Origin: an uncultured Rhodospirillaceae bacterium
Lineage (GTDB): Bacteria; Pseudomonadota; Alphaproteobacteria; UBA6615
Reading direction: 5' to 3'
Length of the DNA: 64,000 bases
NCBI GenBank assembly: GCA_964530225.1
Contig: CAZHBA010000104.1
Span: 15,178-79,177, forward strand
Shown here one piece after another: positions 42,029-64,000 of this stretch. Positions within the stretch are counted from its first letter, which is position 1, and each line of letters starts with the position of its first letter. The notes beneath the pieces are model-generated. The model saw only the letters and a list, made by a program, of their open reading frames with translations. It ran no database searches and was not told the DNA's origin. The translations under genes and the position numbers were made by a program.

Positions 42029-43069
42029 TCAGACCCGCAACAGCGTCTTGTAGGGAAGTACGGTATGGCCCGCGACGGGCGATGCCGCGCTTGTGGTATT
42101 GCCCTTGGCAAGCGCTATCATATTCTCAAACAACGGGACTCCCGCGGCGACCGTCACCGCGGCACTGCCACTGGGCCGCGGATTAATCTCGAGAATACGA
42201 GGATGACCGGCTTGATCGTACATAATGTCGCAATCGTAGAGCCACGACAGGGAAAAGGCGCGGACCAGGTTGGTCCCCAGCTCCTGCAATTCGGGCTCAT
42301 CGACGAAGATATGGCCCTCGTTTGGCAACTGCGAATTTGCCCGCCGTCGTGGCACGACATGCACGGGCTCTCCCTGCCACGCCAGCATGTCGATGTCGAA
42401 TACCGGCTCTGATAGACGCTCCATCGCAATCAGCGGGAACGCGAACTCTGTTTGGCCGGCGCATAACTCCTTGAAGGCCATCTCGCTCAAATGAGTTTCG
42501 CGTCCATTGTATTCATCAGGCAATGAGGCCGTACCTTCCGTGTTGCCGATGACGAACACATCCCGTCCACCGCGGCCGGTCGCGGGCTTTACGACGCAGG
42601 CACCTGCCAACGCCATTACTTCACCAACCGCCGAGACTAAAGCCTGGAGATTCTCTACCTTGCGCCAGAGGGGTACAGGGATACCCTTCTCCGCCAAAAC
42701 CTCATAACAACGCGTCTTGTCGGAAAAAACGTCGAGGGTTGCGTGATCCACACACGCCAGCGTGCAGCCGGCATCGGCGATATCCTCGCGCCTGGCGCTG
42801 AGGCTCAACGCTTCTTCATCCGAACAAGGCACCAACAAATCTACCTTCGTCTGCCTCAGGATGGCCAGAACGGCGTCCGCGTAGCCCGGATCTTTGCCAT
42901 GAGGTATCGTCCAGAATCCATCCGCCAGATAGCGCGAGATATTTCCGTCGCCGGCATCAATCGCCAAAACTCGGGGCGCATGGTTTGGCGATGCCTTTAG
43001 CTGGGTTATGAGGAAGGGAATCATCTCCCCACCCGCCGACGTAAGCATGATCGTGAAGGCCACCGTCAA
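42029..43069 (-). CDS. ATP-grasp domain ligase
   Basis: CPSase-L-chain-like ATP-grasp pattern (…ACVVKPATGRGGRDVFVI…EFAFPLIAMERL…LEINPRPSGSAAV…). 346 aa. Confidence 0.65.
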   Translation of the reverse strand: MTVAFTIMLTSAGGEMIPFLITQLKASPNHAPRVLAIDAGDGNISRYLADGFWTIPHGKDPGYADAVLAILRQTKVDLLVPCSDEEALSLSARREDIADAGCTLACVDHATLDVFSDKTRCYEVLAEKGIPVPLWRKVENLQALVSAVGEVMALAGACVVKPATGRGGRDVFVIGNTEGTASLPDEYNGRETHLSEMAFKELCAGQTEFAFPLIAMERLSEPVFDIDMLAWQGEPVHVVPRRRANSQLPNEGHIFVDEPELQELGTNLVRAFSLSWLYDCDIMYDQAGHPRILEINPRPSGSAAVTVAAGVPLFENMIALAKGNTTSAASPVAGHTVLPYKTLLRV

Positions 43070-44058
43070 TCCTCAATGCTCGACGGCGTTATCGGCTCAT
43101 CGGCTTCAATGTCGACAAGCGCACGCCGTCCGAGAACCGCTTTATACTGATCTGCGGCTATTCCACGGCGATCCGGAAGAGGCCGCTTCACGGCCATGTT
43201 TTCGACGCTCAGTGGCGTTCCAGCAGGAATCGGCTCGTTCGCCACGACGCAACGCAGATAGCGCTCTCGCGCCTGACGCAAATCACCTGTCAGTGGTTTA
43301 CCTGCTACGCCCAATATCAGCTGCGTGCGGCGAATCGAATCGACCATTTGCGCAAACTGTTGCGGGCCCAGCGATATAGGGTGATCGAATCCGGCGCGCG
43401 ACGGGTCCAGTGTGAGGTGCTTTTCGATACACATCGCACCAGCAGCCACGGCCATCGACGCTACATCCGTACCCAGAGAATGGTCGGAAAATCCGCACGG
43501 CACGCCGAACCGTTCCGCCATCCAACCAATGGCCCGCAGGTTTATGCTGTCTTCCGGCACGGGATAGATCGAGGTGCATTGCAGCAGGATAGCGGGGGCC
43601 TGTCCGGCAACGGCTACCAAGGCCGCACCGATCTCGGTTCCATCGGACATGCCCGTGGACAAAATGATCGGGCGACCCGTCGCAGCGGCCTGCTGGATAA
43701 GCGCCGTATGGGTCAGCAGCCCAGAGCTTATCTTATGCGCTACGGGCTCCAACCGGTTGATCCATTCTAGCGTCTCAAAATCGCCAACCGTCGTAAAACA
43801 TGCTATGCCGCACGTGCGCGCATAGGCAAAGACTTCAGCAGTCTGTTCCTGGTTCAGACAGGCTTGCGAAAAGATGGCGTGGCTCTCTGTTCCACGCACA
43901 TAATTCTTGTCGGGATCGATCGTCTGCAGCTTCACTGCATCCGCGCCCGCCGCCATGGCGACATCGATCATACGCACGCAGGTCTCGACGCTACCTTCAT
44001 GGTTGATGCCGATTTCGGCGATAACGAACACCTCCCCAGCAGGCGGCGGAAAAATCAT
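43066..44058 (-). CDS. NeuB-family nonulosonic acid synthase (PseI-like pseudaminic acid synthase)
   Basis: VIAEIGINHEGS motif, …ILSTGMSD…, …LLQCTSIYP…, …GFSDHSLG… and a C-terminal SAF/antifreeze-like domain. 330 aa; ATGA overlap with the ATP-grasp gene. Confidence 0.8.
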   Translation of the reverse strand: MIFPPPAGEVFVIAEIGINHEGSVETCVRMIDVAMAAGADAVKLQTIDPDKNYVRGTESHAIFSQACLNQEQTAEVFAYARTCGIACFTTVGDFETLEWINRLEPVAHKISSGLLTHTALIQQAAATGRPIILSTGMSDGTEIGAALVAVAGQAPAILLQCTSIYPVPEDSINLRAIGWMAERFGVPCGFSDHSLGTDVASMAVAAGAMCIEKHLTLDPSRAGFDHPISLGPQQFAQMVDSIRRTQLILGVAGKPLTGDLRQARERYLRCVVANEPIPAGTPLSVENMAVKRPLPDRRGIAADQYKAVLGRRALVDIEADEPITPSSIED

Positions 44059-44094
44059 GTTGGGTTCCTTGGCAATGACAGCTTACCGGTAATG

Positions 44095-44823
44095 TCAGGC
44101 CAGTGAGGCCCGTACGAGCGAGAAAGCCTCGCCATGGCGAAAGCCATGCGTGGCACCGCGTAACTGCGCCAGGGAAAGCACATTTGCTTGGGAGCGCGGG
44201 TGCGGCGGCGCCCGTAATTCTTTTTCATAAACGCTCAGCGCAGCGACCTTGCGATCAATCTGTGCGTCGATATCGATTACGATGTTGAAGGGAGTGTCGC
44301 TGTCAGAATCGAACCCCCACTCGGTACTGGAGGGGACCTCGAAAGCAAGGATTGCAGCAACGCTCTGGCCCGGCAACGGACGAGCGGCCGTTCGAACTAC
44401 CCGTGCCGCGATCCGGTGATCGACATTGAGGTCGGCAAGACTATGCGTATAGATCAAATTATACTTTTTGGATCCAAGTGCGGTCTCAACAGATTGAACA
44501 ACATCAAGCAAAGGTACGCTGTCCATACGATTGTCCGGGAAGTTCAGGAAGTGCGGTGGCTGGGCCCCCAAAATTTCTGCCGCAACGATGGCGGCTTGCG
44601 ATCTCTCTTCTATATCCGAGGATTTGGTTGCACCGCGAGAAGACAAACCATCGGCCAGGAACAAAATATCGACAGTAGCGCCCGCGTCCGCGTGACGTGC
44701 TATCGTACCGCCGCACCCCAAGACCTCGTCGTCGGGATGGGCGGCCACGACTAGCACCGAGGCTGCATTCAGTAGCATGGCACTCTCCACGTTCGGGCAA
44801 TGACCAGCGGGGGCCGTCGCCAA
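44095..44823 (-). CDS. PIG-L/LmbE-family N-deacetylase
   Basis: VLVVAAHPDDEVLGCGGT zinc-binding signature and downstream HxxH (HSLADLNVDH). 242 aa. Confidence 0.75.
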   Translation of the reverse strand: MATAPAGHCPNVESAMLLNAASVLVVAAHPDDEVLGCGGTIARHADAGATVDILFLADGLSSRGATKSSDIEERSQAAIVAAEILGAQPPHFLNFPDNRMDSVPLLDVVQSVETALGSKKYNLIYTHSLADLNVDHRIAARVVRTAARPLPGQSVAAILAFEVPSSTEWGFDSDSDTPFNIVIDIDAQIDRKVAALSVYEKELRAPPHPRSQANVLSLAQLRGATHGFRHGEAFSLVRASLA

Positions 44824-44833
44824 ATAAACTTCA

Positions 44834-46912
44834 TTATGGCCGAACCTGGAATACCGGGCTGACCAGTTTGCAGTTTAGCCGTTCGCGCAGCGTTCCCGTC
44901 CGCATCGCATCTTTGAGTTCAGGAAGGACGCGCGCATAGGCCGCTTCGATCAGTGCAAGCGCCCCGGCGTCATGGGCATAGCTCATATTGTGACTAGCCG
45001 TCAGAAGTACGCCAAGGTTCATCATCTCTTTCAGGAAAAAAGTCTTGATCTCAGCGGCGCTGAAGCCGTCCTGCCCGGTAAACGAAACTAAGACCCAAGG
45101 ATCGATGCCGTTTAGCTGGATTACCTCTTGTAAATTGTTGTCGCGCACCAGGATATTCACACGATTACGCAGTTTAGCGCCTTGGCTCCACAGATGCTCA
45201 ATCACCGGCTCGTCGCGCATCTTTTTCAAAGTTGCCAACCCCGCCGCCAAAGACAAAGTCTCACCGCCAAACGTCGCCGAAAGAAACACCTCGCGCGCTT
45301 CGGCCATGACATCAGCACGCCCAGCGAGGCAGGACAAAGGATGCCCATTAGCCATGCCCTTGCCGAGGACCGTTAGATCCGGCTGGACGCCGTAATAGGT
45401 TTGCGCGCCGCCTAACGCGGTCCGAAATCCGGTGATCGTTTCGTCGAACACCAAAAGACACCCGTGCTTATCGGCTAGTTGGCGCAAATCAGTAAGGTAG
45501 CGATTTCCGGTGTCATAGTCCGGAACCACCGGCTCCAGCATGACGCACGCCACTTTGCCATCTAGCGTCTTTAGGATGTCCTCGATTTCGCAAAGATCGC
45601 CGGAGGCGACCATGTGGGTCAACTCATGGCTTTGCGGAGGAACGCCACGATTGCGCACCGTCGTTCCAATGTACCAGTCCTGCCAACCGTGATAGCCGGT
45701 GACCAGGACATGATCGCCGCCGGTAAAGGCGCGCGCCACGCGCACCGCCCCCGAGGTTGCGTCCGTGCCGTTTTTTCCAAACCTGACACTCTGCGCCGAG
45801 GGGACGAGCTCGGCGATAAGCTCGGCCAATTCGCACTCCAGTTCGCTAGCCAAACTCAGACTAACGCCAGCCTTCATCTGCTGACGCACCGCCGCGTCAA
45901 CATCCGAATCGCAATAGCCGAGGCTAACGGCAAGGAGCGACATCATCAGATCGACATATTCGTTCCCGTCGATGTCCCAGGCCCGGCACCCCATGCCATG
46001 CGACAGAAACAGCGGCGAACGCCCTTCCGGCAGCACCAGGCGTGACTTACTAAAAGTCTGGCTGGCCAGCGGCACTCTTTGGTCGACCTTGCCTATCGCC
46101 ATGTTCGAGCGATCATAGTTACGTTGTGTTTTAGCCCGAGCCTCCAAATCCTCCAGCAAGGCGGCTGGTATTGCATTTCGCGTCCGACCGATTTTATGCG
46201 TTACACCGGCATCGGACAGCCGGTCCTCTTGCGCGGCCACTTCGAGAAAACTCGGCACGTGGTCGGCTAGGAAACATTCAGCAAGCCGGTCGAGAAACTC
46301 GAGATCCTCTGGCGTATCCAGGGTCCAATGTCTGCCGGCGAGCCCCGGCAAGGGACATTCCAGCGTGCGAATTGAAAAGCGGCTTCGGTTCGCCCGTATC
46401 CACCGGGTCACATGTTCGCGGTGCGACGGCAGATCTGCCTCCGTATCTGCCTGGCGCAAAGTTTCGACCCAGAACGCCTCCACATCCAGCCCATCGGGCC
46501 ACGTCCAAGGAGACGTGTTACAGGCATAATCACAGCCCGCGTTAATCAACAACCAGGCGACCTGATCGATCACGGCCGGATCGAGAAAGGGACAGTCGGC
46601 GGTTAGACGGACAATGACATCGGCGTCCTGTGCCTCCGCCGCACCCAACATCCGATGAAGCACGTCGCTCTCCGAACCGCGATAGCAAGAAATCCCAGCC
46701 TGCTCGCACCAATCGGTGATTGCCCTATCACCATCCTGGATCGACGTCGCAACAACCACATCATCACACAGCCGAGATCTTCGCGCTGCCTGGACCACCC
46801 TTGCCAGCACAGGCTGGCCGCTGATCGGCCGAAGCGCTTTTCCCGGCAGCCGACTAGAGCCCATACGGGCCTGAATTACCGCAATCGTTCGATTTCTCGG
46901 CTGCTGGCTCAT
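44834..46912 (-). CDS. Bifunctional protein: N-terminal SpsF/NeuA-like cytidylyltransferase fused to a class-III (GSA-aminomutase-like) PLP aminotransferase
   Basis: N-terminus IAVIQARMGSSRLPGKAL…VVVATS…VIVRLTADCPF (CTP_transf_3). C-terminal half has an aminotransferase class-III pattern (…GTDATSGAVRVARAFTG…LVFDETITGFR…TVLGKGMANGHPLSCL…, Lys in GKGMA). ATG 46912 chosen: ATGA overlap with the upstream Gfo/Idh/MocA gene, while the ORF-track start 46924 is TTG. Confidence 0.65.
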   Translation of the reverse strand: MSQQPRNRTIAVIQARMGSSRLPGKALRPISGQPVLARVVQAARRSRLCDDVVVATSIQDGDRAITDWCEQAGISCYRGSESDVLHRMLGAAEAQDADVIVRLTADCPFLDPAVIDQVAWLLINAGCDYACNTSPWTWPDGLDVEAFWVETLRQADTEADLPSHREHVTRWIRANRSRFSIRTLECPLPGLAGRHWTLDTPEDLEFLDRLAECFLADHVPSFLEVAAQEDRLSDAGVTHKIGRTRNAIPAALLEDLEARAKTQRNYDRSNMAIGKVDQRVPLASQTFSKSRLVLPEGRSPLFLSHGMGCRAWDIDGNEYVDLMMSLLAVSLGYCDSDVDAAVRQQMKAGVSLSLASELECELAELIAELVPSAQSVRFGKNGTDATSGAVRVARAFTGGDHVLVTGYHGWQDWYIGTTVRNRGVPPQSHELTHMVASGDLCEIEDILKTLDGKVACVMLEPVVPDYDTGNRYLTDLRQLADKHGCLLVFDETITGFRTALGGAQTYYGVQPDLTVLGKGMANGHPLSCLAGRADVMAEAREVFLSATFGGETLSLAAGLATLKKMRDEPVIEHLWSQGAKLRNRVNILVRDNNLQEVIQLNGIDPWVLVSFTGQDGFSAAEIKTFFLKEMMNLGVLLTASHNMSYAHDAGALALIEAAYARVLPELKDAMRTGTLRERLNCKLVSPVFQVRP

Positions 46913-47895
46913 CCACTCACCCAAAACCCGCTCAGCGCACGCGCATCTGTAGCCTGGCGCAGCGCGTTGAGGGCTTCCCTGCCGTCACAGGGTGGATTAT
47001 CGCCACCCCGAACGGCGTCGACGAACTGCGTCAGCACGGCCTGGTATTCCTTGTTCGGTTCGAAGGCGTAGCGAGTCTCGGACTGCGGACTTCCAGTCGC
47101 ATCGAAACGCTGGAGATATCCTTGCCGTAGATCCGCAACGATAGCCCCAACCTCGCCAGACACCTCCAGGTATCGACGGCGAACGCGCGACCCAAAATCC
47201 AGATGCAGCGATGAAATACACCCGGCCGCATGCTGTAGAATAACTTCCGCCATGTCTTCTGTTTGAAGCTCCATCACGCCAGTCTTACGCAACACCGCGG
47301 ACACGGCCTCGGCGGGCCCAAGCAAATGGTTGGCAAGATCAATCTCGTGAATCACATCGAGAACCACACCTCCGCCGACGACGTCGTTGGCGTATCCTGT
47401 CCGGTAGTCGCGATCCGCACGCCAATCCGGGAGCCAAGATGCGCTGACAAAACGCGCCCAACGGGGTGGTCCGAGTGCTGCTATCTCGGCGGGCAGCGCC
47501 GCGACAATTTCGCGTTGGCGCAAATTGAAGACGCCGCCAACCTGTAAATGTTGTTTGGTGGCCTGATCCAGAAGGGCCCCCACCGCACCGGGGTCGTGGC
47601 CAATGGGTTTCTCGACCAAGGTCGGAACATCGGCCGACAGACTCAAAGCGAGATCGGCCTGATGCTGGCCGGTGGGTGAAGCCACCAGCGCGATGTCGGC
47701 ATTCTCCAACGCGTCCTGCGCCGTGTTAGCCAATGCCAAGCCCAGACCAGCGGCCTGCTCTCGCGCTACATCGCCCGGGTCATAGCCGACAACAGAAAGA
47801 TCCAGAGCATTAGCGTTTTTGGCATGACGCGACCCTATCGAACCCAAGCCGAGAATGGCGATGCGTTCGACCTTTCTCGGCGGAAACTCGCTCAC
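46909..47895 (-). CDS. Gfo/Idh/MocA-family NAD(P)-dependent oxidoreductase
   Basis: N-terminal Rossmann IAILGLGSIGSRHAKN and …LVEKPIG… motif. 328 aa. Confidence 0.7.
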   Translation of the reverse strand: MSEFPPRKVERIAILGLGSIGSRHAKNANALDLSVVGYDPGDVAREQAAGLGLALANTAQDALENADIALVASPTGQHQADLALSLSADVPTLVEKPIGHDPGAVGALLDQATKQHLQVGGVFNLRQREIVAALPAEIAALGPPRWARFVSASWLPDWRADRDYRTGYANDVVGGGVVLDVIHEIDLANHLLGPAEAVSAVLRKTGVMELQTEDMAEVILQHAAGCISSLHLDFGSRVRRRYLEVSGEVGAIVADLRQGYLQRFDATGSPQSETRYAFEPNKEYQAVLTQFVDAVRGGDNPPCDGREALNALRQATDARALSGFWVSG

Positions 47896-49133
47896 GCGGC
47901 CGTCTCACCAAGTACTTGGACGAGGGCGGCGATCACCCGCTCGATGTCCTCGGCCTGCATGTCCACGAATATCGGCAGCGACAGGACGCGGCAGAAATAG
48001 CTATCGCCACCAGGCAAGTCGGACAGGCCATATCGCTCAACATAATAAGGTTGCCGGTGGACTGGAATATAATGGACCTGGGTGCCAATCCCAGCGTCCC
48101 GCAATGCCGTCATGATCTGTCCCCGTATGGGCGCGAACTCCGGCGTCAGCAGGATCGGATAAAGATGGTAAGAGGGACGGCAGTCGTCGCTCCAACTTAT
48201 CGGCTGAGCGTAAGATTCCAGCGCGCCCATATGCGCGTCATAGGAAGCAGCAAGTGCTCTTCGCTGCTCGATAAATTGGTCCAACCGAGCTAGCTGGCTC
48301 GTGCCCAGCGCACATTGCAGGTCGGTCAGGCGATAGTTGAAACCGATCTCCGACATTTGATAGGCGCCAGCATAGCCTGCACCCAGCCCCAGACCAGCGA
48401 GAAAATCGGGCGCCGACGCACCTTCCTCCCGAACCAAACCATGGTTTCGCAGCCGACGAATGCGTTTCGCAAGGAAACTATCGCGGAGCGCGACCGCCCC
48501 GCCCTCGCCTGTGGCGATCGACTTGACGGGATGAAAAGAAAAACACGCCGCGAGGCTTTCCGTACAGGCTCCGACGGTGACCCAGTCTGACAGCTCAGCG
48601 GCGTAATACTCCGCACCCAACGCGTGGCAGGCGTCTTCGACGATCGTCATTTCAGCCGCACGCGCCACCGGCGCCACGGTGGTCAAATCGACGGTTTGCC
48701 CGTTGAGGTGCACCGGCAGAACCACCGTCGGCCGCAAACCTGGGAAGCGTCGAGGGAGCGTCTCGATACAGGCGGCGAGGTCTTGCTCGCGCATCAGACC
48801 CGTTTTGGGGTCCACATCGCAGAATGCTACCTCGGCGCCGGTCATGCGAACGGCGTTCGCCGTCGCCACAAAGGTCATGGCCGGCACGATCGCCACAGTT
48901 TCTGGACCCAGACCCGCCGCCATAGTGGCCAGATGGAGCGCTGCGGTCCCCGAACCGCAGACGATTATTTCGGCGCCCCCCAACCGCTCGGAAAGCGCCG
49001 CCTCGAAAGCCTCGACCCTAGGGCCTTGGGTCAACCAGTCGGATCGCAGGCAATCTGTAACCGCAGCGATGTCCTCTTCGCTAATCTGTTGGCGGCCGTA
49101 TGAAAGAAACGGTGGTTTTCCGGAGTCCGACAT
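47892..49133 (-). CDS. pseC: DegT/DnrJ/EryC1-family PLP aminotransferase (PseC-like UDP-4-amino-4,6-dideoxy-N-acetyl-beta-L-altrosamine transaminase)
   Basis: …SGTAALHLA…, …FSFHPVKSIATGEGGAVAL… (PLP Lys in HPVKS) and …DWLTQGPRV…. 413 aa, immediately downstream of pseB. Confidence 0.8.
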   Translation of the reverse strand: MSDSGKPPFLSYGRQQISEEDIAAVTDCLRSDWLTQGPRVEAFEAALSERLGGAEIIVCGSGTAALHLATMAAGLGPETVAIVPAMTFVATANAVRMTGAEVAFCDVDPKTGLMREQDLAACIETLPRRFPGLRPTVVLPVHLNGQTVDLTTVAPVARAAEMTIVEDACHALGAEYYAAELSDWVTVGACTESLAACFSFHPVKSIATGEGGAVALRDSFLAKRIRRLRNHGLVREEGASAPDFLAGLGLGAGYAGAYQMSEIGFNYRLTDLQCALGTSQLARLDQFIEQRRALAASYDAHMGALESYAQPISWSDDCRPSYHLYPILLTPEFAPIRGQIMTALRDAGIGTQVHYIPVHRQPYYVERYGLSDLPGGDSYFCRVLSLPIFVDMQAEDIERVIAALVQVLGETAA

Positions 49134-49191
49134 TAATTCGTTAGCCAGCTATTCGGCGCCGATGGGCAGGCGTGCGCAAACTGCGCTGCTG

Positions 49192-50193
49192 TTAGCCAAT
49201 CTCTGACAGTAGTTCGGAGATTTCTTGTTCGTTCAGAAACTGGCTATTGCGGTCACTCGAATAGGTAAAATCCTCCCCAACGGGTGTTGCGTCCGGCAGA
49301 GGATCGCGCGTACGTGACCAGAATACGAAGGAGGGTTCGATGATGTAGCGGTCGTCAAGCTCGACCGTGTTGCGCGCATCATCGCGCGTGATCATGATTT
49401 CGTGCAGCTTCTCGCCGGGGCGAATTCCCACCACGCGCTGCTCCAGATCGGGCGCGATGGCGCGGGCAAGGTCGGGAATATGCACGCTCGGGATTTTTGG
49501 CACGAAAATTTCGCCGCCTCGCATCATGTCAAGAGAGGCCAGTACGAACTGCACACTCTGGTCGAGCGTAATCAAAAAGCGCGTCATGTTCGGATCGGTG
49601 ATCGGCAGATGGTCGTTGCCGTCCTTGACGAGCTTGCAGAAGAAAGGAACGACGCTACCCCGCGAATTTACGACATTACCATAACGCACCACGGAAAACC
49701 GTGTACCGTCGGTTCCGGCGACATTGTTGGCGGCAATAAAGATTTTGTCCGACGCGAGCTTACTTGCGCCATACAGGTTCACCGGGTTTGCGGCCTTATC
49801 CGTCGACAACGCTACGACCTTCTTCACCCCCGCCCTAATCGCGGCCTGCGCCACATTTTCGGCCCCGATCACATTGGTCTGGATACATTCAAAGGGGTTG
49901 TATTCCGCCAGCGGCACATGCTTTAGCGCGGCAGCATGGATGACATAGTCAATCCCGTGCATCGCGGTCACCAGCCGCTCGCGGTCGCGCACATCGCCAA
50001 TGAAAAGCCGGACCTTGCTTCGTGCCGCTGGATTGAGGCCGAGCTCCAACTCATGGTGCTTGTGTTCGTCGCGGCTGAAAACGACCACTCTGGCCGGGTT
50101 GTGCGTTGCCAGTACCTTTTTCAGAAAATTACTCCCGAAAGAGCCCGTGCCACCGGTGATGAGGACAGACGAATTCTGCAAATTCATCGCCAA
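49192..50193 (-). CDS. pseB: UDP-N-acetylglucosamine 4,6-dehydratase (inverting), PseB/FlaA1 family
   Basis: VLITGGTGSFG, …VRDRERL…IHAAALKHVPLAEYNPFECIQTNVIGAENV…ALSTDKAANPVNLYGASKLASDKIF…TRFSVVRYGNVVNSRGSVVPFF…, near-identical in motif order to Campylobacter/Helicobacter PseB. 333 aa. Confidence 0.85.
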   Translation of the reverse strand: MAMNLQNSSVLITGGTGSFGSNFLKKVLATHNPARVVVFSRDEHKHHELELGLNPAARSKVRLFIGDVRDRERLVTAMHGIDYVIHAAALKHVPLAEYNPFECIQTNVIGAENVAQAAIRAGVKKVVALSTDKAANPVNLYGASKLASDKIFIAANNVAGTDGTRFSVVRYGNVVNSRGSVVPFFCKLVKDGNDHLPITDPNMTRFLITLDQSVQFVLASLDMMRGGEIFVPKIPSVHIPDLARAIAPDLEQRVVGIRPGEKLHEIMITRDDARNTVELDDRYIIEPSFVFWSRTRDPLPDATPVGEDFTYSSDRNSQFLNEQEISELLSEIG

Positions 50194-51658: not shown

Positions 51659-51688
51659 GAAATCCGGTGTTCTTCGGTATGGCTAATT

Positions 51689-54628: not shown

Positions 54629-54668
54629 AAGATCGCGCCCGCTTTAACTGAAAAAATTCGTCTGAGCA

Positions 54669-56033: not shown

Positions 56034-56061
56034 AACGTCCAGTTTTGTAGATCACTCAAGA

Positions 56062-56847: not shown

Positions 56848-58197
56848 CTAAACGGAAACAGCCTCCACTCTGGCACCCTGCATTAAATCGATTGTTTGCT
56901 GCCTTTCTCGGGACAGCTTGCGGAAAAAGTCGACATAACGCCGTACGGCGTTGCCGTCCAAGGCAGTAACGTATTTTTCAAACACGGCACGCCGACCCGG
57001 CATCAACTCGTTATCCACCAACGGATTTTCCATACGCAGCGACAGCAATCTTTCGAGCGCCTGTCCGTCCTTGGCGACGTCAAAATACTGGTGGGCGTCG
57101 CGGAAGCGGACGGTCCCGCGGATCGATTGCTGGTCGAACACCGTGAAAACCGGCACGATAACCGGTTTCCCAGCGACACCGGCTTCCAGCAGCGTCGTCG
57201 TGTTCATGCCAAGAATGACATCACTGACCCGGATCGCTTCATGCGCGTCGAGCTGGGCGTTGAACTCCACATTCCCAACCTGCTCCAAATTCAGTCCGGA
57301 TCCGACCAGCGCCTTTTCGACTACGGCCCGCTCATAATTAAGCTGCTTTAGCTTGGGTTTAATGATGAGCCGGTAATTCGGATTGCGAGCGAAAAACCTG
57401 ATGAGTGAGCAGTAGAGTTCTTGAAAATAGGCGTCCGTCTCTTCGGGGCTGGCAACATGTTGAGCGGTCGTGAAGAAGGTCGCGGTCCCTCCATTCGGGG
57501 TTTGGTTAAATGCGCCGGCTTCGATTTCGCGCAAAAAACTATCCATCCGCATACACCCCATCGCCCATGTCTGATCATCGCGCGAATACCCCTCCGCAAC
57601 GCAAAAATCCCGTGCCGAGGTGGTGTGAACCAGGAAGTGGTCGCCCTGAAAACGGCCTAACCTTTCGAAGAAAATCCGCATTTGGCTCTTAATTTTATTC
57701 GATGAAGTTAACAAGCCCTCGCGGAAAATCGTACAATAGGGCACGTTCAGGGCCATCGTAGCGCGGCCTAAATCAATATCCGCCGGCGTGCGGATGTGAA
57801 ACGAGATCACGCTATCGCAGGGCCGTAATCGGAAATAACTTTGCAGCACCCGTCCGTAGAACTTTATTAGCCTCTGTTTGGCTTTCTCGAAGCGGCTACC
57901 GGGAGCGGGGTTCATCACGTCACGATTACGGAACCGGGATCCGTAGAAGGCAAGAACCAACGCGGTTTGCCACCAGACCGGAAACAGATAAACCTCTACC
58001 TCGCCACTGTCGGCAAGCGCCTCAAGATCGCCACGGAATCCAAAATGCGACAAGGCGAGAATCCGCAAAGGCTCCGGCGAACGCATGGGAACGGAACTGG
58101 GCTTACGTACAGTACGCCAAGCAAGAAAGCGCGCCCAAACCAGCGCGGGTAACAAAGTCACGGCGAGACGCAAGACAAATCGAAGAATTAATGTCAT
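56848..58197 (-). CDS. Membrane-anchored TagF/Capsule_synth-like GT-B protein (paralog B)
   Basis: ATG 58197 (MTLILRFVLRLAVTLLPALVW) gives an ATGA overlap with the upstream cytidylyltransferase stop. The longer ORF-track start 58341 would overlap that gene by 148 nt. Paralog of 54669-56033. Confidence 0.45.
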   Translation of the reverse strand: MTLILRFVLRLAVTLLPALVWARFLAWRTVRKPSSVPMRSPEPLRILALSHFGFRGDLEALADSGEVEVYLFPVWWQTALVLAFYGSRFRNRDVMNPAPGSRFEKAKQRLIKFYGRVLQSYFRLRPCDSVISFHIRTPADIDLGRATMALNVPYCTIFREGLLTSSNKIKSQMRIFFERLGRFQGDHFLVHTTSARDFCVAEGYSRDDQTWAMGCMRMDSFLREIEAGAFNQTPNGGTATFFTTAQHVASPEETDAYFQELYCSLIRFFARNPNYRLIIKPKLKQLNYERAVVEKALVGSGLNLEQVGNVEFNAQLDAHEAIRVSDVILGMNTTTLLEAGVAGKPVIVPVFTVFDQQSIRGTVRFRDAHQYFDVAKDGQALERLLSLRMENPLVDNELMPGRRAVFEKYVTALDGNAVRRYVDFFRKLSRERQQTIDLMQGARVEAVSV

Positions 58198-58916
58198 CGC
58201 GACGGGCCAGTTGATGTTTCTTGCGATAGAAAGAATTCGGCCAACAACAGATCGAACGCCGTATCGATATTGGCCTGCACGCCTTCCAGAATTACGGCCC
58301 CGGCCCGGTTCCCCAGAAGCGATCTCTGCTCGGCCAGGCATTCCCGAGTGAAAACATATGCTACGCCGTTACGATGATAGATCGGCACGAGCTGCTGACG
58401 GGCGATAATGGTTGCACCGTCAGGATCGTAGTAGCCGAGACCCGATTCCGAGACCACAAGCTGCTTGAGAGGGTGCGCTTTTGAATCCGTTTCAGAAACG
58501 GTCCAGACGGCGTCGAGCTCTTCCTCGACGAGCTTTCGTACGGCGGACGTTACGTCCTCGGCCTGCCGCAAGGGCGAGGTCGGCTGCAACATGACGACAA
58601 TGTCGTATCGTTTACCGTCAAGTTGCTCCATGCTTTGCAGGGCGTGCATAAGCACGTCGACGTCGCCGATCCGGTCGCCGGAAAGGAATTCTGGCCGGCG
58701 GAAGGGCGCGGCAATGCCGGCCGCCTCAGCGACCCGAGCAATCTCCTCGTGATCGGTGGAAACCACCGCGCAATCAACCCAGGAGAGCTCGCGTAGTACG
58801 TCGCCCACCCGGGCGACCAGCGGCTTGCCACCAATCTCCCGGAGATTTTTCAAGGGAATACCCTTGCTTCCGCCACGCGCCGGAACAACCACAAGACAAG
58901 TTTTGCCGGCAAACAT
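58194..58916 (-). CDS. Acylneuraminate cytidylyltransferase-family protein (PseF-like CMP-pseudaminic acid synthetase candidate)
   Basis: LVVVPARGGSKGIPLKNL…VVSTD…VMLQPTSPLR. 240 aa. This is the second free-standing CTP_transf_3 gene in the locus. Confidence 0.7.
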   Translation of the reverse strand: MFAGKTCLVVVPARGGSKGIPLKNLREIGGKPLVARVGDVLRELSWVDCAVVSTDHEEIARVAEAAGIAAPFRRPEFLSGDRIGDVDVLMHALQSMEQLDGKRYDIVVMLQPTSPLRQAEDVTSAVRKLVEEELDAVWTVSETDSKAHPLKQLVVSESGLGYYDPDGATIIARQQLVPIYHRNGVAYVFTRECLAEQRSLLGNRAGAVILEGVQANIDTAFDLLLAEFFLSQETSTGPSR

Positions 58917-58922: not shown

Positions 58923-60776
58923 TCAGTTTCCGGTCGTGCCGCTTAATGGTGAGGCCTTCCAGATTTCCGTGGACTCGGCGTTCACAAAAGCCTTCACCGC
59001 GCCGTCCTCGATATGGATCACAACATCGGCGATGTTTGCTAAAGCAGGCCTGTGCGTGATCGACACCACTGTAACTTGTGGCGTCAAAGAACGTACGGTC
59101 TGAGCGATTTCCTGCTCTGTTCGGCTGTCTAGAGCGCTGGTGGCTTCATCAAGAATAAGCAGTTGCGGCCGACGCACCAAGGCGCGGGCGATACAGATAC
59201 GCTGACGTTCTCCGCCGGAAAGAGTTACACCGCGTTCACCTACCTGGGCGTCCATCCCGCGGCTAAGCCTAGATATAAAATCTTCGGCTCCGGCGCGATA
59301 AGCAGCATCAGCGATTTCGTCATCCAAATAAATGTCATCGCCCATGGTTATGTTATCGCGGATAGTTCCATTGAACAGAAACACGTCTTGCGGAACATAG
59401 CCGATGGATCGGCGCCACGCGTGCAGCTTGAGCTCCTCGAGCGGCGTATCGTCGATCAGGATTTGGCCTTCCTGCGGCTGAACTAAACCGACTAGCAGAT
59501 CGGCAAGCGTCGTTTTGCCAGCACCAGAACCTCCCAGCAGACACACGAACTCGCCAGCGCAAATCCGCAGGTCCATATTCTTGATGATAGGAGCGGTTGG
59601 CGCCTCGGCCTCGGATGACTGAAAATATAGATCGCCAGCCTCTCCTCCGTCTGTGGAATAGGCGAAGCCAACACCCTCGAACCGAATATCACGATTGAAT
59701 TCGACACCAGAGATATCGCCCATATCTCGCTCCTCATTGGCGCAGACATAGTCGAGCAAACCCCTTACATGGCGGTACGGCATTTCCGTCTGGGAAACCG
59801 ACTGCCACTGCTTCTGAAAGCGCCCAACAGTCTCGAGCGACCGCAGAAACACAAATGCAATGGCTAGCAGAGCCTCAATCGAGGTGGGTTTAAACGTGGA
59901 AAAAACATAAATCACACCAATCAGTGCAACCGTTCGTATGACTTCCTGTGACGAACCAAGGGCCTTCTTAAGCAGCAATAACTTGATCATAACCTGGCGG
60001 AGCACCCGAATATCTTTGTGCAATATCGGCTGCAAGTGCGCCGCCATACCCATGGCCTTCAACGGTTTCATGCCCATCAAGCTGTCGATTAGACGCGTCG
60101 AAAAACTCGACATCAACATGGTCAAACGACGGCTGTTGCGCTGGGTGCTGCCAATAAAGCGGGCCAACAGAAGCAACATTAAAGCGCCGACCGCGATGGC
60201 GCCGAGGGTAACTTCCCAGGAAATGATTAGTGCCGAAATCAGATAGGCAATGGCCTGTAGGGTCGTTGCGACAATGTCGGCAAACTGCGAATAAAGCTGG
60301 CCATAACTTTGTGAGGCATTAGTAATCGCGTTGGAGAGTCGGCCAGTTGGCTGCCGCGTAAACACTTCCCAGCGTGCTTGGAGCAGGCCAGAAATTAAGT
60401 CGCGTCTTATTTCCTCGACCGCTTGCGATTGCGCCACGCTAACCTGAATCTGAGCGACCAAAGTGGCGCCCACTTTGAGAACGATCACAACCAGGATGAA
60501 TCCCAGAAGAGCCTCGAGCGTGAACGGTATCCCATACCTTTCGAAGGCGCTGACAAAGCCTTGAATGACCGGATGGGGTTCTGCCGCCATATCCGCACCC
60601 TCGAGAAACACCCCGATAGCCGGAAGCAACGCGAGGACTCCAATTCCATCCAGAATAGCGGAGATCAATAGAAAGGCGACCGATAGCGACATCTGCACCG
60701 GCCGCGTTCGAGCAACGCCAAATAATAGCGAGACACGGCCCGCCGTCGATATATTCTTGGAGCGTTTAACCGTCAT
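58923..60776 (-). CDS. ABC exporter, fused transmembrane + ATPase domains (MsbA/PglK-like lipid-linked-glycan or lipid flippase family)
   Basis: Six-helix N-terminal TMD. C-terminal NBD with Walker A LLGGSGAGKTT, signature LSGGERQR and Walker B LLILDEATSALD. 617 aa. Confidence 0.8.
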   Translation of the reverse strand: MTVKRSKNISTAGRVSLLFGVARTRPVQMSLSVAFLLISAILDGIGVLALLPAIGVFLEGADMAAEPHPVIQGFVSAFERYGIPFTLEALLGFILVVIVLKVGATLVAQIQVSVAQSQAVEEIRRDLISGLLQARWEVFTRQPTGRLSNAITNASQSYGQLYSQFADIVATTLQAIAYLISALIISWEVTLGAIAVGALMLLLLARFIGSTQRNSRRLTMLMSSFSTRLIDSLMGMKPLKAMGMAAHLQPILHKDIRVLRQVMIKLLLLKKALGSSQEVIRTVALIGVIYVFSTFKPTSIEALLAIAFVFLRSLETVGRFQKQWQSVSQTEMPYRHVRGLLDYVCANEERDMGDISGVEFNRDIRFEGVGFAYSTDGGEAGDLYFQSSEAEAPTAPIIKNMDLRICAGEFVCLLGGSGAGKTTLADLLVGLVQPQEGQILIDDTPLEELKLHAWRRSIGYVPQDVFLFNGTIRDNITMGDDIYLDDEIADAAYRAGAEDFISRLSRGMDAQVGERGVTLSGGERQRICIARALVRRPQLLILDEATSALDSRTEQEIAQTVRSLTPQVTVVSITHRPALANIADVVIHIEDGAVKAFVNAESTEIWKASPLSGTTGN

Positions 60777-60873
60777 GGTCGCCCTCGCGTTTGAGGCAAC
60801 CCACCAAGAAGGATCCCGCGCACTAGCGCAGAACTAGTGGCAATGGGCGAACGTACCGTTTTTTTAAGGTTGT

Positions 60874-61362
60874 TCATACGACTCTAATGTGACTGAGCGG
60901 TGTCGTGACCTTGACTTGACGACCCATCAGGTGAAGCAAGACCTCGGCACGCCGATGTCCAGGTAGGCGAATAATTACACCGAACTGCTGATCCAGCGGG
61001 CCATCGGCCAGAACGACTTTATCCCCGGCCCGCAGTGAGGGATCTTCTGGCTGAAGCATGATCAGCCCGTCCGCATTTTCACGGCTCATGATTTCCTCGA
61101 CAACACCGGCAGGCACAGCGCTTGGTTTGGGTCCAAACTGCACGAGATTGGCGACGCCAAAAGTACCGTTCACCGACCGCCAGCGCGCCGTTTCAAGATC
61201 CAGTTCCACAAAGAGGTAACGCGGAAATAGCGGGATACGGCGAACGTTCGCTCGGACACCAGCAATATAAGGGCAGTAGCTGCGAAAACCCTGCCGCTGC
61301 AGGTTGATTTCGGCCACCCGCTCTGAGCTTGGCTTCGTCCGGACGACAAACCAGCAGCTCAC
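60874..61362 (-). CDS. NusG-paralog transcription antiterminator (RfaH/UpxY/LoaP-like)
   Basis: GTG 61362 (GGAGA RBS 7 nt upstream) gives (M)SCWFVVRTKPSSERVAEINLQRQGF…, the NGN-domain start typical of NusG paralogs. C-terminal KOW-like segment (…GDKVVLADGPLDQQFGVII…). The 500 nt upstream within the same long ORF are low-complexity Gly/Arg/Cys-rich and not protein-like. GTGA overlap with the regulator gene upstream. Confidence 0.65.
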   Translation of the reverse strand: MSCWFVVRTKPSSERVAEINLQRQGFRSYCPYIAGVRANVRRIPLFPRYLFVELDLETARWRSVNGTFGVANLVQFGPKPSAVPAGVVEEIMSRENADGLIMLQPEDPSLRAGDKVVLADGPLDQQFGVIIRLPGHRRAEVLLHLMGRQVKVTTPLSHIRVV

Positions 61363-62030
61363 TTTAGGTCTCCACGATTTACCAGCCCAGCCCGAGAAAT
61401 CTTCAACAGCCCAGCAGCAAATACATTTTGCTTGCCGAGCCTCTCTGACCACAGGTCGTAACTCTTCTGGGGGGACCGCATATCGCTGATGATAACCGCC
61501 TCCACCGAGTCCAAGTCCACGAGATCGGCAACCACTGGCAGACCCGCAACCCGACCCCCGGCCGCCGAAGCATCTACAATGCCGGTAATTTCCAAGGTGC
61601 TGTCCAGTGCGGTCAGGGCCATAATCTCGGCCAAATCTCCGGCTCCAACCAAGGCAAGCCGTTTTTTTTGATGCTGCTCCGCTAACGCGCAAACTTCCTT
61701 GGCCTGTTCTCGCGCGAGCCGAAAAAATTCCAGCGATGTGGAAAGATACTCCCCCGTCAGCCTTGCTTTTTCCGTAAACCCTATTGGCGTTAAGTAATAG
61801 GCATACCGATTGGCAGGCACTTGCTGGACCTTTACCCAACCTTTCTTGATGCATCTTTTCAGATAAGCGTTGGCGAGGCCCAATGCGATTCCAAGCTCTT
61901 TTGCCAGACTGCGTTGGGAAAGAGTGCTGCTTTCTTCAATCGCGGACAGCATCCCGAGCGTAATCGTTACCTCGTTGGAGGTCTGTTCATCGGCTGTATC
62001 TAGCTCCAGCTTTCTCTTGTTATCGTTCAT
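61359..62030 (-). CDS. Winged-helix transcriptional regulator with C-terminal Rossmann-like domain
   Basis: N-terminal wHTH (…LSQRSLAKELGIALGLANAYLKRCIKKGWV…) and C-terminal …RLALVGAGDLAEIMALTAL…ITGIVD… domain. 223 aa. The start codon lies inside a GTTCA-N5-TGAAC palindrome. Confidence 0.55.
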   Translation of the reverse strand: MNDNKRKLELDTADEQTSNEVTITLGMLSAIEESSTLSQRSLAKELGIALGLANAYLKRCIKKGWVKVQQVPANRYAYYLTPIGFTEKARLTGEYLSTSLEFFRLAREQAKEVCALAEQHQKKRLALVGAGDLAEIMALTALDSTLEITGIVDASAAGGRVAGLPVVADLVDLDSVEAVIISDMRSPQKSYDLWSERLGKQNVFAAGLLKISRAGLVNRGDLK

Positions 62031-62325: not shown

Positions 62326-63411
62326 ATGACGAGTGTAAAAATCATCGGAGCCGGGTCGATTGGCAACCACCTGGCGCATGCCGCGCGTAGCAAAAGCTGG
62401 GACGTGACACTTTGTGATATCAACCCCGAGGCCCTGGAACGCACCAAAACATCGATTTATCCGTCACGTTATGACAGTTGGGATAATTCTATCCACCTAA
62501 CCACAATTGATGATGCACCACGCGGAGAATTTGACTGGATTTTCATCGGCACGCCACCGGACGTTCACATGACCCTTGCTCTAGACGCTCTGGAAGAGCA
62601 TCCGCGCGGAATTTTGATCGAAAAGCCACTTGCAACCCCGAACCTCGCCAATTGCCAGGATGTGATCGACAAGGCCACAGAACTCGGCGTCAGAGCATTT
62701 GTTGGCTACGACCACGTCGTTTCCAGTAGCGCCCAAAGGTTCTGCGAACATGCGCGCAATCTGAAGGGCGTCAAAACGCTCGACGTTTCTTTCCGGGAGC
62801 ACTGGCAAGGTATCTTTAACGCCCACCCTTGGCTGTCGGGCCCTTCGGATACTTATCTCGGATTCTGGAAACGCGGCGGTGGCGCTTGCGGAGAGCACTC
62901 GCATGCGCTCAACTTATGGCAGCATTTCGGCCATGTTCTGGGCGCGGGCCGGATTAATGTTGTCTCAGCTATGATGGATTACGTTGAGCGCGACGGGGCA
63001 AGCTATGATCAGCTTGCCTTGATAAACCTTGGGACTGAAACAGGCTTGATCGGACGCGTGGTCCAGGATGTGGTGACACATCCTCCGTTAAAGTGGGCCC
63101 GCCTACAAGGTGACGAGGCAGCGGTCGAATGGCAATGTATCCCCTCGCCTTATCAGGATATCGTGCGAACTAACGGCATCACACCCGACGAGGAAGTGTT
63201 CGCGAAAACACGGCCGCAGGACTTCATACAGGAACTTGACCATCTCGAGCATGTAGTAACCACAGGCGACCTATCGCCGATCGATCTGGAGCGCGGCCTG
63301 GATTCTATGCTGGTAATAGCCGCAGCGCATATTTCCGCCCAGCAGGGTTGTGCCGTTGAGATCAACTATGAAGTGGGATATTCCAGCGAGGCGTTACGGC
63401 CCACCCCGTAA
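62326..63411 (+). CDS. Gfo/Idh/MocA-family NAD-dependent oxidoreductase (sugar-nucleotide dehydrogenase-like)
   Basis: VKIIGAGSIGNHLAHAA Rossmann start and …ILIEKPLA… motif. 361 aa. Confidence 0.65.
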   Translation: MTSVKIIGAGSIGNHLAHAARSKSWDVTLCDINPEALERTKTSIYPSRYDSWDNSIHLTTIDDAPRGEFDWIFIGTPPDVHMTLALDALEEHPRGILIEKPLATPNLANCQDVIDKATELGVRAFVGYDHVVSSSAQRFCEHARNLKGVKTLDVSFREHWQGIFNAHPWLSGPSDTYLGFWKRGGGACGEHSHALNLWQHFGHVLGAGRINVVSAMMDYVERDGASYDQLALINLGTETGLIGRVVQDVVTHPPLKWARLQGDEAAVEWQCIPSPYQDIVRTNGITPDEEVFAKTRPQDFIQELDHLEHVVTTGDLSPIDLERGLDSMLVIAAAHISAQQGCAVEINYEVGYSSEALRPTP

Positions 63412-63430
63412 CGGTGAATCGGAGATTGAA

Positions 63431-64000
63431 ATGATAGCAGACGCGTTGCCATACGACTTCGGCGGCCTTGTCGTATTCGACCTCGCCAACAATCACCAGG
63501 GCGACGTCGATCATGGCTGCAATATTATCCGGACCATGGGCGATCTAGCGCGCAAGCATGGCGTGCGGGCGGCCATGAAGTTTCAATTCCGCCAACTGGA
63601 TAGCTTCATCCACAAGGCCCACCTAAGTGGTAGCGAGAACAAGCACGTCTCACGTTTCCTGTCGACACGGCTGGACCGGGCCGCCGTGCAAAGTCTTTTC
63701 GACGAAGTGAAAACAGCTGGCTTAATATCCATGTGCACGCCCTTCGACGAGGCTTCGGTCGACGTCATCCAGGAAATGGGCTTCGACATTCTAAAGATCG
63801 CCAGCTGTTCCGCGACTGACTGGCCGCTCCTGGAGAAGGCGACCAACTCCGGCCTCCCTATCGTGTGCTCCACCGGTGGCCTGGACCTGTCCCAGATCGA
63901 CGATCTCTATAGCTTCTTTACCCACCGTGGTGTTGACTTTGGCTTGATGCATTGCGTGTCTATCTATCCCACACCTCCAAACATGCTGGAATTAAACCAG
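63431..64000 (+). CDS. Third NeuB-family (sialic-acid-synthase-like) protein, 3'-partial at window edge
   Basis: Open frame from ATG 63431 (GGAG RBS 7 nt upstream) to the end of the window without a stop, so it is absent from the ORF track. …VVFDLANNHQGD… (variant of the EIGINHNG block), …LPIVCSTGG…, …GLMHCVSIYPTP… match NeuB-family block order. Confidence 0.6.
   Translation, partial: MIADALPYDFGGLVVFDLANNHQGDVDHGCNIIRTMGDLARKHGVRAAMKFQFRQLDSFIHKAHLSGSENKHVSRFLSTRLDRAAVQSLFDEVKTAGLISMCTPFDEASVDVIQEMGFDILKIASCSATDWPLLEKATNSGLPIVCSTGGLDLSQIDDLYSFFTHRGVDFGLMHCVSIYPTPPNMLELNQ

Follow-up and report, generated by a model that had tools for sequence, protein, structure and literature searches.

Three NeuB-family synthases, each accompanied by its own cytidylyltransferase and by conserved partner genes, were found in a 64,000-nt stretch of DNA (the window) from an uncultured Rhodospirillaceae bacterium. 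We consider it rather likely that the polysaccharide locus running from ~26 kb, to which the last 26 kb of the window belong, has gathered three independent supply lines of cytidine monophosphate (CMP)-activated 3-deoxy-2-ulosonic acids. These are referred to as module A (37.9–50.2 kb), module B (50.7–56.7 kb) and module C, which includes the synthase gene starting at position 63431; the synthases are NeuB#1, NeuB#2 and NeuB#3, respectively. NeuB#3 is predicted to be a bifunctional synthase–isomerase fusion encoded in a cassette that is shared across phyla. We infer the product of every module from its genes; module B is the most secure case, followed by module A and then by module C.

Three synthases and three cytidylyltransferases

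The original prediction had listed three NeuB-family genes and three CTP_transf_3 cytidylyltransferase domains in the locus, reading them as three separately activated donors. Pfam searches recovered both families at all of these genes (Table 1). PF03102 (cutoff 22.1 bits) matched NeuB#1 with 219.1 bits (E = 8e-65), NeuB#2 with 243.7 bits (E = 2.4e-72) and the 190 visible residues of NeuB#3 with 95.7 bits (E = 4.1e-27; 130.5 bits with 460 aa). PF02348 (cutoff 22.6 bits) matched residues 14–184 of the 44834–46924 product (103.7 bits, E = 1.6e-29) as well as the products of the separate genes 53888–54628 (72.9 bits, E = 4.2e-20) and 58194–58916 (81.9 bits, E = 7.4e-23), and the N-terminal AR.GS..(I/L)P.K motif is kept in all three domains. 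The gene order was likewise as described, with NeuB#1 among pse genes and NeuB#2 between NeuC and NeuA. For the cytidylyltransferase fusion the N-terminal position of the domain held, and only the start had to be moved: 46912 is an internal ATG of a TTG-started open reading frame (ORF) spanning 44834–46924.

In pairwise alignments the synthases are only 24–34% identical to one another and the cytidylyltransferase domains 27–33% (partial alignments). By these values, both sets are judged to be old paralogues from different subfamilies and not recent copies; recent duplication of the synthases was rejected. Residues were compared in the numbering of Neisseria meningitidis NeuB, the reference sequence being 55% identical to NeuB#2, consistent with the strong match of NeuB#2 to PDB entry 1XUU. 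The metal ligands His215 and His236 and the phosphoenolpyruvate (PEP) contacts Lys53, Gln55, Lys129, Ser132, Ser154 and Ser213 are kept in all three synthases, and Ser replaces N184 in all three. Since substrate-contacting positions differ and identity is limited to 24–34%, the three synthases are not redundant.

Two possibilities that would have undone the original prediction, a decayed copy and membership of the KdsA/DAHP-synthase family, were also examined. All three frames are intact and carry full domain sets. None of the three synthases matched DAHP_synth_1 or KDO8PS in Pfam or NCBIfam, and KdsA/DAHP membership was rejected: Foldseek returned only remote neighbours with the TIM-barrel fold, at 10–16% identity. 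A Pfam SAF domain is present in NeuB#1 (E = 8e-15) and NeuB#2 (E = 2.9e-12); NeuB#3 has no Pfam SAF match, and the corresponding region aligns to the C-terminal domain of 3G8R.

A predicted synthase–isomerase fusion

NeuB#3 had been described as a distinct paralogue in a divergent unit, carrying a VFDLANNHQGD block and open at the window edge. The paralogue, its block and its position stand, and the description is now refined to that of a NeuB/sugar-isomerase fusion. Its frame runs past the window end. In contig L001 (2 mismatches to the window over 11,675 nt), which adds 811 nt past the window end, the frame continues for at least 460 codons, and in the ~98% identical contig L089 a stop ends it at a length of 516 codons from the ATG at 63431; the gene is thus intact. 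Contig L002 matches the window without mismatches, and database protein P0001 is 100% identical to NeuB#3 over 460 residues.

The N-terminal 340 residues of NeuB#3 match 3G8R, the closest solved relative of its NeuB part, with 44% identity (E = 1e-88). 3G8R, from Chromobacterium violaceum, was deposited as 'probable spore coat polysaccharide biosynthesis protein E' and we found no paper on its function; unlike NeuB#3 it is a stand-alone protein of 350 aa that lacks an isomerase domain. Four substitutions, R314 to Met, D247 to Asn, E134 to Ser and E25 to Asp, are fixed across the fusion family, and NeuB#3 scores 115.2 on the NeuB equivalog model TIGR03569 (cutoff 399.65). R314 is listed as the conserved catalytic residue of the SAF domain (PMC8208679), and R314A and R314K mutants are on record in the PDB (4IPI, 4IPJ). 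The loss of R314 in NeuB#3 argues against N-acetylmannosamine (ManNAc) as its substrate.

A cupin of 170 residues ends the protein (Cupin_2, E = 2.3e-9). With an AlphaFold model of NeuB#3 (predicted local distance difference test score, pLDDT, 79), Foldseek matched the C-terminal part to the D-lyxose isomerases 7NZP and 7NZO (E ~2e-9, target TM 0.65–0.68, rmsd 2.6–3.7) and also to 3KMH. Motifs of the isomerase family were aligned by phmmer in NeuB#3 (N..YC.K..V..P.Q..P.H.H, K.ETF, PG....P...H.F and EE.S...D..F.D), and H437, H440, H442, K445, E447 and H481 do not vary among 14 fusion-family members; they include the His/His/Glu/His metal ligands and the Lys. PF07385, the D-lyxose isomerase family, gave 16.5 bits with the 460-aa fragment (cutoff 20.8 bits) and is among the precomputed matches of full-length database members of the fusion family. 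Weak matches to mannose-6-phosphate isomerase (7ZVM, E = 1.5e-5) and to PF01050 were seen as well. Fold, metal site and flanking motifs, taken together, place the domain in the D-lyxose/D-mannose isomerase family. It shares fold, metal site, Lys and the C-terminal E-x-S...D..F.D segment with the enzymes of Thermofilum (7NZO–7NZQ), Bacillus subtilis (YdaE, 2Y0O) and Escherichia coli O157 (3KMH), but is only ~20% identical to them, and whereas they are free catabolic enzymes it forms part of a synthase fusion.

The fusion family comprises 313 clusters at 50% identity (HMMER, E ≤ 1e-30), and most of the 150 members listed are ~500 aa long and aligned over residues 30–525. Source annotations are generic ('N-acetylneuraminate synthase family protein', 'cupin domain-containing protein', 'sialic acid synthase SpsE/D-lyxose ketol-isomerase'), and literature searches found no publication on the fusion or its cassette.

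The fusion-gene cassette

Species-representative genomes were scanned for the fusion gene, giving at least 556 confirmed stretches; locus counts refer to the best 80, in which the fusions are almost all end-to-end. Carriers include Alphaproteobacteria, Nitrospirales, Desulfuromonadales/Geobacteraceae, Verrucomicrobiota, Planctomycetota, Chloroflexota, Gemmatimonadales, Cyanobacteria and others, and among cultured strains Niveispirillum irakense DSM 11586 and Thalassospira sp. HF15. The most constant partner is a homologue of the Gfo/Idh/MocA oxidoreductase Gfo361, immediately upstream of the fusion gene (77/80 loci). A phosphatase of the haloacid dehalogenase (HAD) superfamily, of HAD-IA/HAD_2 type, follows directly downstream in 59 loci. 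Clustering of neighbouring ORFs further revealed an S-adenosylmethionine (SAM) methyltransferase in 38 loci and TagF-like proteins of the glycosyltransferase B (GT-B) fold in 29 and 17. No dehydratase, aminotransferase or acetyltransferase belongs to the cassette.

The third cytidylyltransferase is present as predicted, but the partner of NeuB#3 is not the one expected from position, as it sits in the divergent operon (58194–58916). Because its homologues, 51–69% identical, share the fusion cassette in 65 of the 80 loci, we assign it to NeuB#3. The same placement is seen in the closest relatives of the window, L006 and L009, and the comparison indicates that the gene was moved into the divergent operon in the lineage of these three. 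Its nearest solved relative is the Vibrio cholerae CMP-N-acetylneuraminic acid (Neu5Ac) synthetase 6IFD (95.8 bits), KdsB reaching at most 42. Searches against solved structures gave no match for the HAD protein and, for Gfo361, only marginal matches to glucose–fructose oxidoreductase that do not narrow its substrate. Taken together, Gfo, NeuB–isomerase, HAD and cytidylyltransferase genes appear to constitute a conserved cassette across phyla, a new element relative to described pathways.

In ~15–21 of the 80 loci, mostly from Nitrospirales (such as L037, L042 and L056), extra genes lie 5–7 kb upstream of the fusion gene and encode an alpha-oxoamine-synthase-like pyridoxal phosphate enzyme, a short-chain dehydrogenase/reductase and a protein of 800 aa that contains an ELM1-type domain. 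These extras hint at a lipid-linked or otherwise different acceptor in Nitrospirales.

A second NeuB-family gene was detected within 10 kb of the fusion gene in 7/80 loci, and three synthases with three cytidylyltransferases in a single one (L024), which belongs to an unrelated alphaproteobacterial genome and has the same three modules.

A pseudaminic-type gene set around NeuB#1

Module A contains a dehydratase and an aminotransferase that pass the PseB and PseC equivalog cutoffs, respectively (Table 1). The PseG-like protein falls just below its cutoff (153.55), the PseH match of the second GNAT is weak (23.5, cutoff 93.1) and the PseF model scores 40.1 on the fused cytidylyltransferase domain (cutoff 205.7), such that PseG, PseH and PseF equivalogs are not assigned although proteins of the right general families are present. 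NeuB#1 is nearest to Campylobacter jejuni PseI among solved structures (8H2C, 147 bits; NeuB, 133 bits), retains R314 and is below both the PseI (TIGR03586, 228.2, cutoff 340.25) and the NeuB equivalog (TIGR03569, 256.3).

Two unusual residues of NeuB#1, Leu for E134 and Gly for F112, are shared with a 41% identical orthologue in a Micavibrio genome (L013, 16502–17575). Decay of NeuB#1 was rejected on this ground: Leu134 and Gly112 are traits of a subfamily. The two proteins may represent a synthase subfamily of their own that uses another aldose. A PIG-L gene adjoins the NeuB#1 orthologue in both L013 and L024. The order Gfo328–cytidylyltransferase/aminotransferase–PIG-L–NeuB is repeated in L024 and parts of it are found in L048, L013 and L073, and Gfo328 co-occurs with the cytidylyltransferase/aminotransferase fusion in L024 and L048; NeuB#1 is paired with the fused CTP_transf_3 domain (44834–46924) because this order recurs. 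The cytidylyltransferase half is SpsF/KdsB-like (PDB 6OEW, 'Cytidylyltransferase', 111.9 bits), and the class-III aminotransferase half is nearest to glutamate-1-semialdehyde (GSA)-aminomutase and C-6' aminotransferases. A megablast search against plasmids gave no match to 43066–50193.

The 550-nt leader upstream of pseB (50194–50746) is free of genes and has GCGGTAGC at 50343–50350 on the minus strand, resembling the ops element recognised by RfaH. As the motif is not above chance (5 occurrences in the window, 2.5 expected), an ops-like element at pseB was rejected. Promoter and terminator scans of two leaders were uninformative.

A NeuC–NeuB–NeuA block

In module B, the NeuC, NeuB and NeuA-like genes are contiguous or overlapping (51689–54628), with a 4-nt overlap between the last two. 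NeuB#2 aligns to N. meningitidis NeuB (1XUU) with 404.7 bits (E = 3e-120, 55% identity), and 17 of the 18 active-site positions checked are identical, including R314, the exception being the Ser at N184; on TIGR03569 it scores 362.9, under the cutoff. The nearest solved relatives of the NeuA-like protein are the CMP-Neu5Ac synthetases 9FTB, 6IFD and 1EYR.

The block from 50747 to 56739 has a GC content of ~0.49 (0.48–0.51; third codon positions 0.51–0.59), compared with 0.55–0.61 on both sides, and is missing from L006 and L009. The core order GT-B protein (UNK454), NeuA, NeuB, NeuC, sulfotransferase is repeated in L024 at 45–63% identity. Given the low GC content, the absence from L006 and L009 and the same order in L024, module B is probably a mobile CMP-Neu5Ac module that arrived by horizontal transfer and came to lie between the pseB leader and the transferase gene of module C.

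A sulfotransferase gene adjoins NeuC in the window and, at 45% identity, in L024 (20040–20948), and a CysN/adenosine-5'-phosphosulfate (APS)-kinase fusion in the same polysaccharide locus (29329–31125, plus strand) would supply 3'-phosphoadenosine-5'-phosphosulfate. A sulfated sialic acid or sialoglycan is conceivable on this basis; we know of no report of one in bacteria.

Transferases, export and regulation

The divergent operon has the order winged-helix regulator, NusG paralogue, ABC exporter, cytidylyltransferase, GT-B protein. The last of these, UNK449, and UNK454 of module B are paralogous (29% identity, E = 2e-51), and each gene lies directly downstream of a cytidylyltransferase gene; UNK449 also adjoins the cytidylyltransferase gene in L006 and L009. 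Foldseek with the UNK449 model (pLDDT 90.2) matched GT-B proteins (UDP-GlcNAc 2-epimerases, OtsA and TagF; E = 4e-10 and weaker), returning the generic fold and no specific sialyltransferase family. Both proteins match the NCBIfam BFO_1060 glycosyltransferase model weakly. Pfam assigned no family to them or to a 627-aa protein encoded at 40034–41917 (minus strand). That protein and a 364-aa one (35158–36252, minus strand) are two sizeable in-locus products with no significant Pfam or NCBIfam family, the latter with a weak Glyco_trans_1_2 match; they may be further transferases or polymerases.

The NusG paralogue is below the RfaH cutoff (TIGR01955, 103.8). A mechanical 326-aa ORF at 60874–61854 (minus strand) is misleading here, as the NusG domain occupies only its last 160 residues; in gene calls on identical contigs, the paralogue overlaps the winged-helix regulator by 4 nt in a different frame. 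The GT-B proteins, the ABC exporter and the NusG/RfaH paralogue point to a glycan that is exported or lies on the surface. The 64-kb window contains no flagellar genes.

The polysaccharide locus seems to begin near 26 kb, where genes at 25936–27597 (plus), 27697–28971 (minus) and 31129–32908 (plus) belong to a region encoding a heparinase II/III-like protein, a UDP-glucose/GDP-mannose-type dehydrogenase and two tandem FkbM-type methyltransferases. Genes for three GT4 glycosyltransferases come next (32923–37805). The first 26 kb of the window carry haem, tRNA-modification and rRNA-methylation genes.

Table 1. Features of the three modules and the divergent operon (gene calls for 56062..56739 and 60874..61362 are taken from the near-identical contig L001)
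Feature	Coordinates	Strand	Evidence
PseG-like UDP-sugar hydrolase with C-terminal GNAT (PseH-like role)	37922..39421	-	TIGR03590 146.7; Acetyltransf_3 residues 348-480
Second GNAT acetyltransferase	39411..39953	-	Acetyltransf_3 E 2.4e-15
ATP-grasp ligase, 4-nt overlap with NeuB#1 stop	42029..43069	-	ATPgrasp_Ter E 2.4e-19, PylC-like_N
NeuB#1, divergent pseudaminic-acid-type synthase, 330 aa, NeuB + SAF	43066..44058	-	Pfam
PIG-L/LmbE-type de-N-acetylase	44095..44823	-	PF02585 E 8.4e-25
CTP_transf_3 (14-184) + class-III aminotransferase (304-645), 696 aa	44834..46924	-	Pfam
Gfo/Idh/MocA oxidoreductase, 328 aa (Gfo328)	46909..47895	-	Pfam
PseC aminotransferase	47892..49133	-	TIGR03588 429.4 (cutoff 423.5)
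PseB inverting UDP-GlcNAc 4,6-dehydratase	49192..50193	-	TIGR03589 491.9 (cutoff 407.75)
Sulfotransferase	50747..51658	-	Sulfotransfer_3 E 4.1e-11
NeuC-type hydrolysing UDP-GlcNAc 2-epimerase	51689..52942	-	TIGR03568 407.2 (cutoff 235.9)
NeuB#2, Neu5Ac-synthase-type, 349 aa, NeuB + SAF	52842..53891	-	Pfam, PDB 1XUU
NeuA-like cytidylyltransferase	53888..54628	-	CTP_transf_3
Membrane-anchored GT-B protein, 454 aa (UNK454), candidate sialyltransferase	54669..56033	-	Paralogue of 56848-58197
SAM-dependent methyltransferase	56062..56739	-	Methyltransf_25
GT-B fold protein, 449 aa (UNK449), candidate module C transferase	56848..58197	-	AlphaFold + Foldseek
Cytidylyltransferase, partner of NeuB#3, module C	58194..58916	-	CTP_transf_3
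Half-size ABC exporter, transmembrane domain + ATPase	58923..60776	-	ABC_membrane + ABC_tran; HepA/MsbA-like
NusG/RfaH-family antiterminator paralogue, 162 aa	60874..61362	-	NusG E 1.9e-16
Winged-helix regulator, 223 aa, first gene of minus-strand operon	61359..62030	-	HTH_24 E 2.5e-9
Gfo/Idh/MocA oxidoreductase, 361 aa (Gfo361), module C	62326..63411	+	Pfam; directly 5' of fusion gene in 77/80 loci
NeuB#3, first 190 codons of 516-aa NeuB + D-lyxose/D-mannose-isomerase-like cupin fusion	63431..64000	+	Pfam, near-identical contigs, fold match

DISCUSSION

Several NeuB/NeuA paralogues, each serving a different nonulosonic acid, occur in C. jejuni (NeuB1, LegI, PseI) and in Leptospira, so that the stacking of three nonulosonate synthases is already known in kind. 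The window differs from these in having all three synthases within 21 kb of one polysaccharide locus and in its third synthase, a fusion from an uncharacterised subfamily that is not of the Neu, Leg or Pse type and whose cassette lies outside described pathways.

Module A shares PseB, PseC, PseG, GNATs, a synthase closest to PseI and a CTP_transf_3 domain with the Pse pathway of Campylobacter and Helicobacter (PseB/C/H/G/I/F). It departs from that pathway in that the synthase and cytidylyltransferase are not equivalogs, a class-III aminotransferase is fused, Leu occupies the Glu134 position and Gfo, PIG-L and ATP-grasp genes are interleaved. In the proposed route, PseB, PseC, GNAT and PseG would convert UDP-GlcNAc to a 2,4-diamino-2,4,6-trideoxy-hexose. 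NeuB#1 would join this sugar to PEP, and the product would be activated by the cytidylyltransferase half of the fusion. Oxidation by Gfo328 and transamination by the fused aminotransferase may re-tailor amino groups, and the sugar acid would be de-N-acetylated by the PIG-L protein and N-acylated, in an ATP-dependent manner, by the ATP-grasp ligase. The product would thus be a pseudaminic-type diamino acid with reworked amino groups; a deacetylase in a nonulosonate cluster has been linked to a free-amine product in Candidatus Kuenenia (preprint 10.64898/2026.04.20.719630).

Module B has the NeuC, NeuA and NeuB of the N. meningitidis SiaA/SiaB/SiaC system, with metal, PEP and ManNAc contacts kept, and would convert UDP-GlcNAc to CMP-Neu5Ac, a sulfotransferase, a methyltransferase and a GT-B transferase being attached. 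Compared with N. meningitidis, its NeuA-like enzyme is short and distant from 1EYR (48.5 bits), sulfotransferase and methyltransferase are additional and NeuB#2 is just below the equivalog cutoff.

For module C we infer substrates, products and the role of the Gfo enzyme from domain content, gene pairings and their conservation. The isomerase domain would convert a ketose to a manno- or lyxo-configured aldose, in the simplest case fructose to mannose, and the adjoining NeuB domain would condense the aldose with PEP to a non-aminated ulosonic acid, in the simplest case 3-deoxy-D-glycero-D-galacto-nonulosonic acid (Kdn). The HAD phosphatase may remove phosphate either from a ketose phosphate before isomerisation or from a 9-phosphate product after condensation. 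The 58194–58916 cytidylyltransferase would then form the CMP donor, to be used by the neighbouring GT-B protein and exported by the ABC exporter. A non-aminated product, most simply Kdn, is suggested by the isomerase fusion, the loss of Arg314, a cassette devoid of amino-sugar genes and the HAD partner.

Known Kdn routes employ a Kdn-9-P synthase, a HAD phosphatase and a CMP-Kdn synthetase in Bacteroides thetaiotaomicron and NANS, NANP and CMAS in vertebrates. Module C resembles them in pathway logic (synthase, HAD and cytidylyltransferase with no amino-sugar enzymes) but adds the fused isomerase and the almost obligatory Gfo. It also follows the four-step plan of the 3-deoxy-D-manno-octulosonic acid (Kdo) pathway (KdsD/KdsA/KdsC/KdsB), namely isomerase, PEP synthase, phosphatase and cytidylyltransferase, although its synthase is of the NeuB and not the KdsA type, its isomerase is a cupin and not a SIS protein, and KdsB is a more distant relative of its cytidylyltransferase than are the CMP-Neu5Ac synthetases. 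Kdn/Neu-type acids are reported to be frequent in environmental prokaryotes (PMC8157484).

Several observations weigh against three supply lines with these products. NeuB#1, NeuB#2, PseG and all three cytidylyltransferases score under NCBIfam equivalog cutoffs, and Glu134, counted among the catalytic residues (PMC8208679), is missing in NeuB#1 and NeuB#3. Low scores and the lost Glu134 could mean that the synthases are redundant or partly decayed and that the cell makes one or two sugar acids only, which we regard as extremely improbable: the frames are intact with full domain sets, the proteins are too dissimilar (24–34% identity), the deviating residues are kept in orthologues 41–85% identical and each synthase has its own conserved partner genes. 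Module B could instead make legionaminic acid if a diacetylbacillosamine (diNAcBac)-type precursor were encoded past 64 kb. NeuC-type hydrolysing epimerases also serve the Leg pathway, such that the block would read LegG/LegI/LegF; the score of NeuB#2 (362.9, cutoff 399.65) fits this, as do genes for PglF-like, DegT and hexapeptide-acetyltransferase proteins that follow the cassette in L006, in the region beyond the window. We think this unlikely, since NeuB#2 is 55% identical to N. meningitidis NeuB with 17/18 residues the same, no LegB/LegC/LegH set lies beside module B in the window or in L024, and the sole dehydratase/aminotransferase pair of the window passes the PseB and PseC cutoffs of the inverting pathway.

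The simple Kdn route for module C faces further difficulties. Only relatives with a 78–85% identical fusion protein show the HAD gene, whose expected position lies beyond the window end. D-Lyxose isomerases use free sugars, while a HAD phosphatase suggests phosphorylated intermediates. Human Neu5Ac-9-P phosphatase falls in the same HAD-IA/HAD_2-type class as the cassette proteins, and one could picture a phosphorylated route as in vertebrates and B. thetaiotaomicron, from Fru-6-P through Man-6-P, Kdn-9-P and Kdn to CMP-Kdn, with the cupin as a phosphomannose-type isomerase, the NeuB domain making Kdn-9-P and the HAD protein acting as Kdn-9-P phosphatase. The HAD gene directly after the synthase in 59/80 cassettes and the weak cupin matches to 7ZVM and PF01050 agree with it. 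We find it rather doubtful, as the best fold and motif matches are to isomerases acting on unphosphorylated sugars and the Gfo enzyme stays unexplained. A plain Kdn route needs no oxidoreductase either, yet one accompanies the fusion gene in 77/80 loci; with a near-obligatory Gfo that has no place in it, substrate or product is probably not simply mannose or Kdn. The acid may therefore be an undescribed one, a suggestion that we consider possible though well short of probable: examples are a C8 acid derived from D-xylulose/D-lyxose, a heptulose-derived C10 acid, and a derivative that the Gfo enzyme and the frequent methyltransferase (38 loci) would form by oxidation, epimerisation or O-methylation. 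That the isomerase family is named after lyxose would suit it. A preprint reports unassigned CMP-ulosonic acids from Magnetospirillum (10.64898/2026.04.20.719630), but those compounds are doubly N-acetylated, whereas the cassette lacks an aminotransferase.

We put forward, tentatively, that the fusion cassette may define a widespread undescribed pathway from a central ketose to a CMP-ulosonic acid, either a missing bacterial Kdn route or a route to a new acid (C8, C10, oxidised or O-methylated), whose product would here share a single exported glycan with a tailored pseudaminic-type acid and a sialic acid that may be sulfated. The cassette is found in hundreds of species from many phyla under generic annotations; its four or five genes make it a compact candidate route to a CMP-activated acid, starting from a common sugar, and it could serve chemo-enzymatic synthesis. 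Sialic-acid-like sugars influence the recognition of bacterial surfaces by phages, predators and immune systems, and this locus, with its three-module combination recurring in L024, appears to illustrate how nonulosonate modules are stacked by horizontal transfer.

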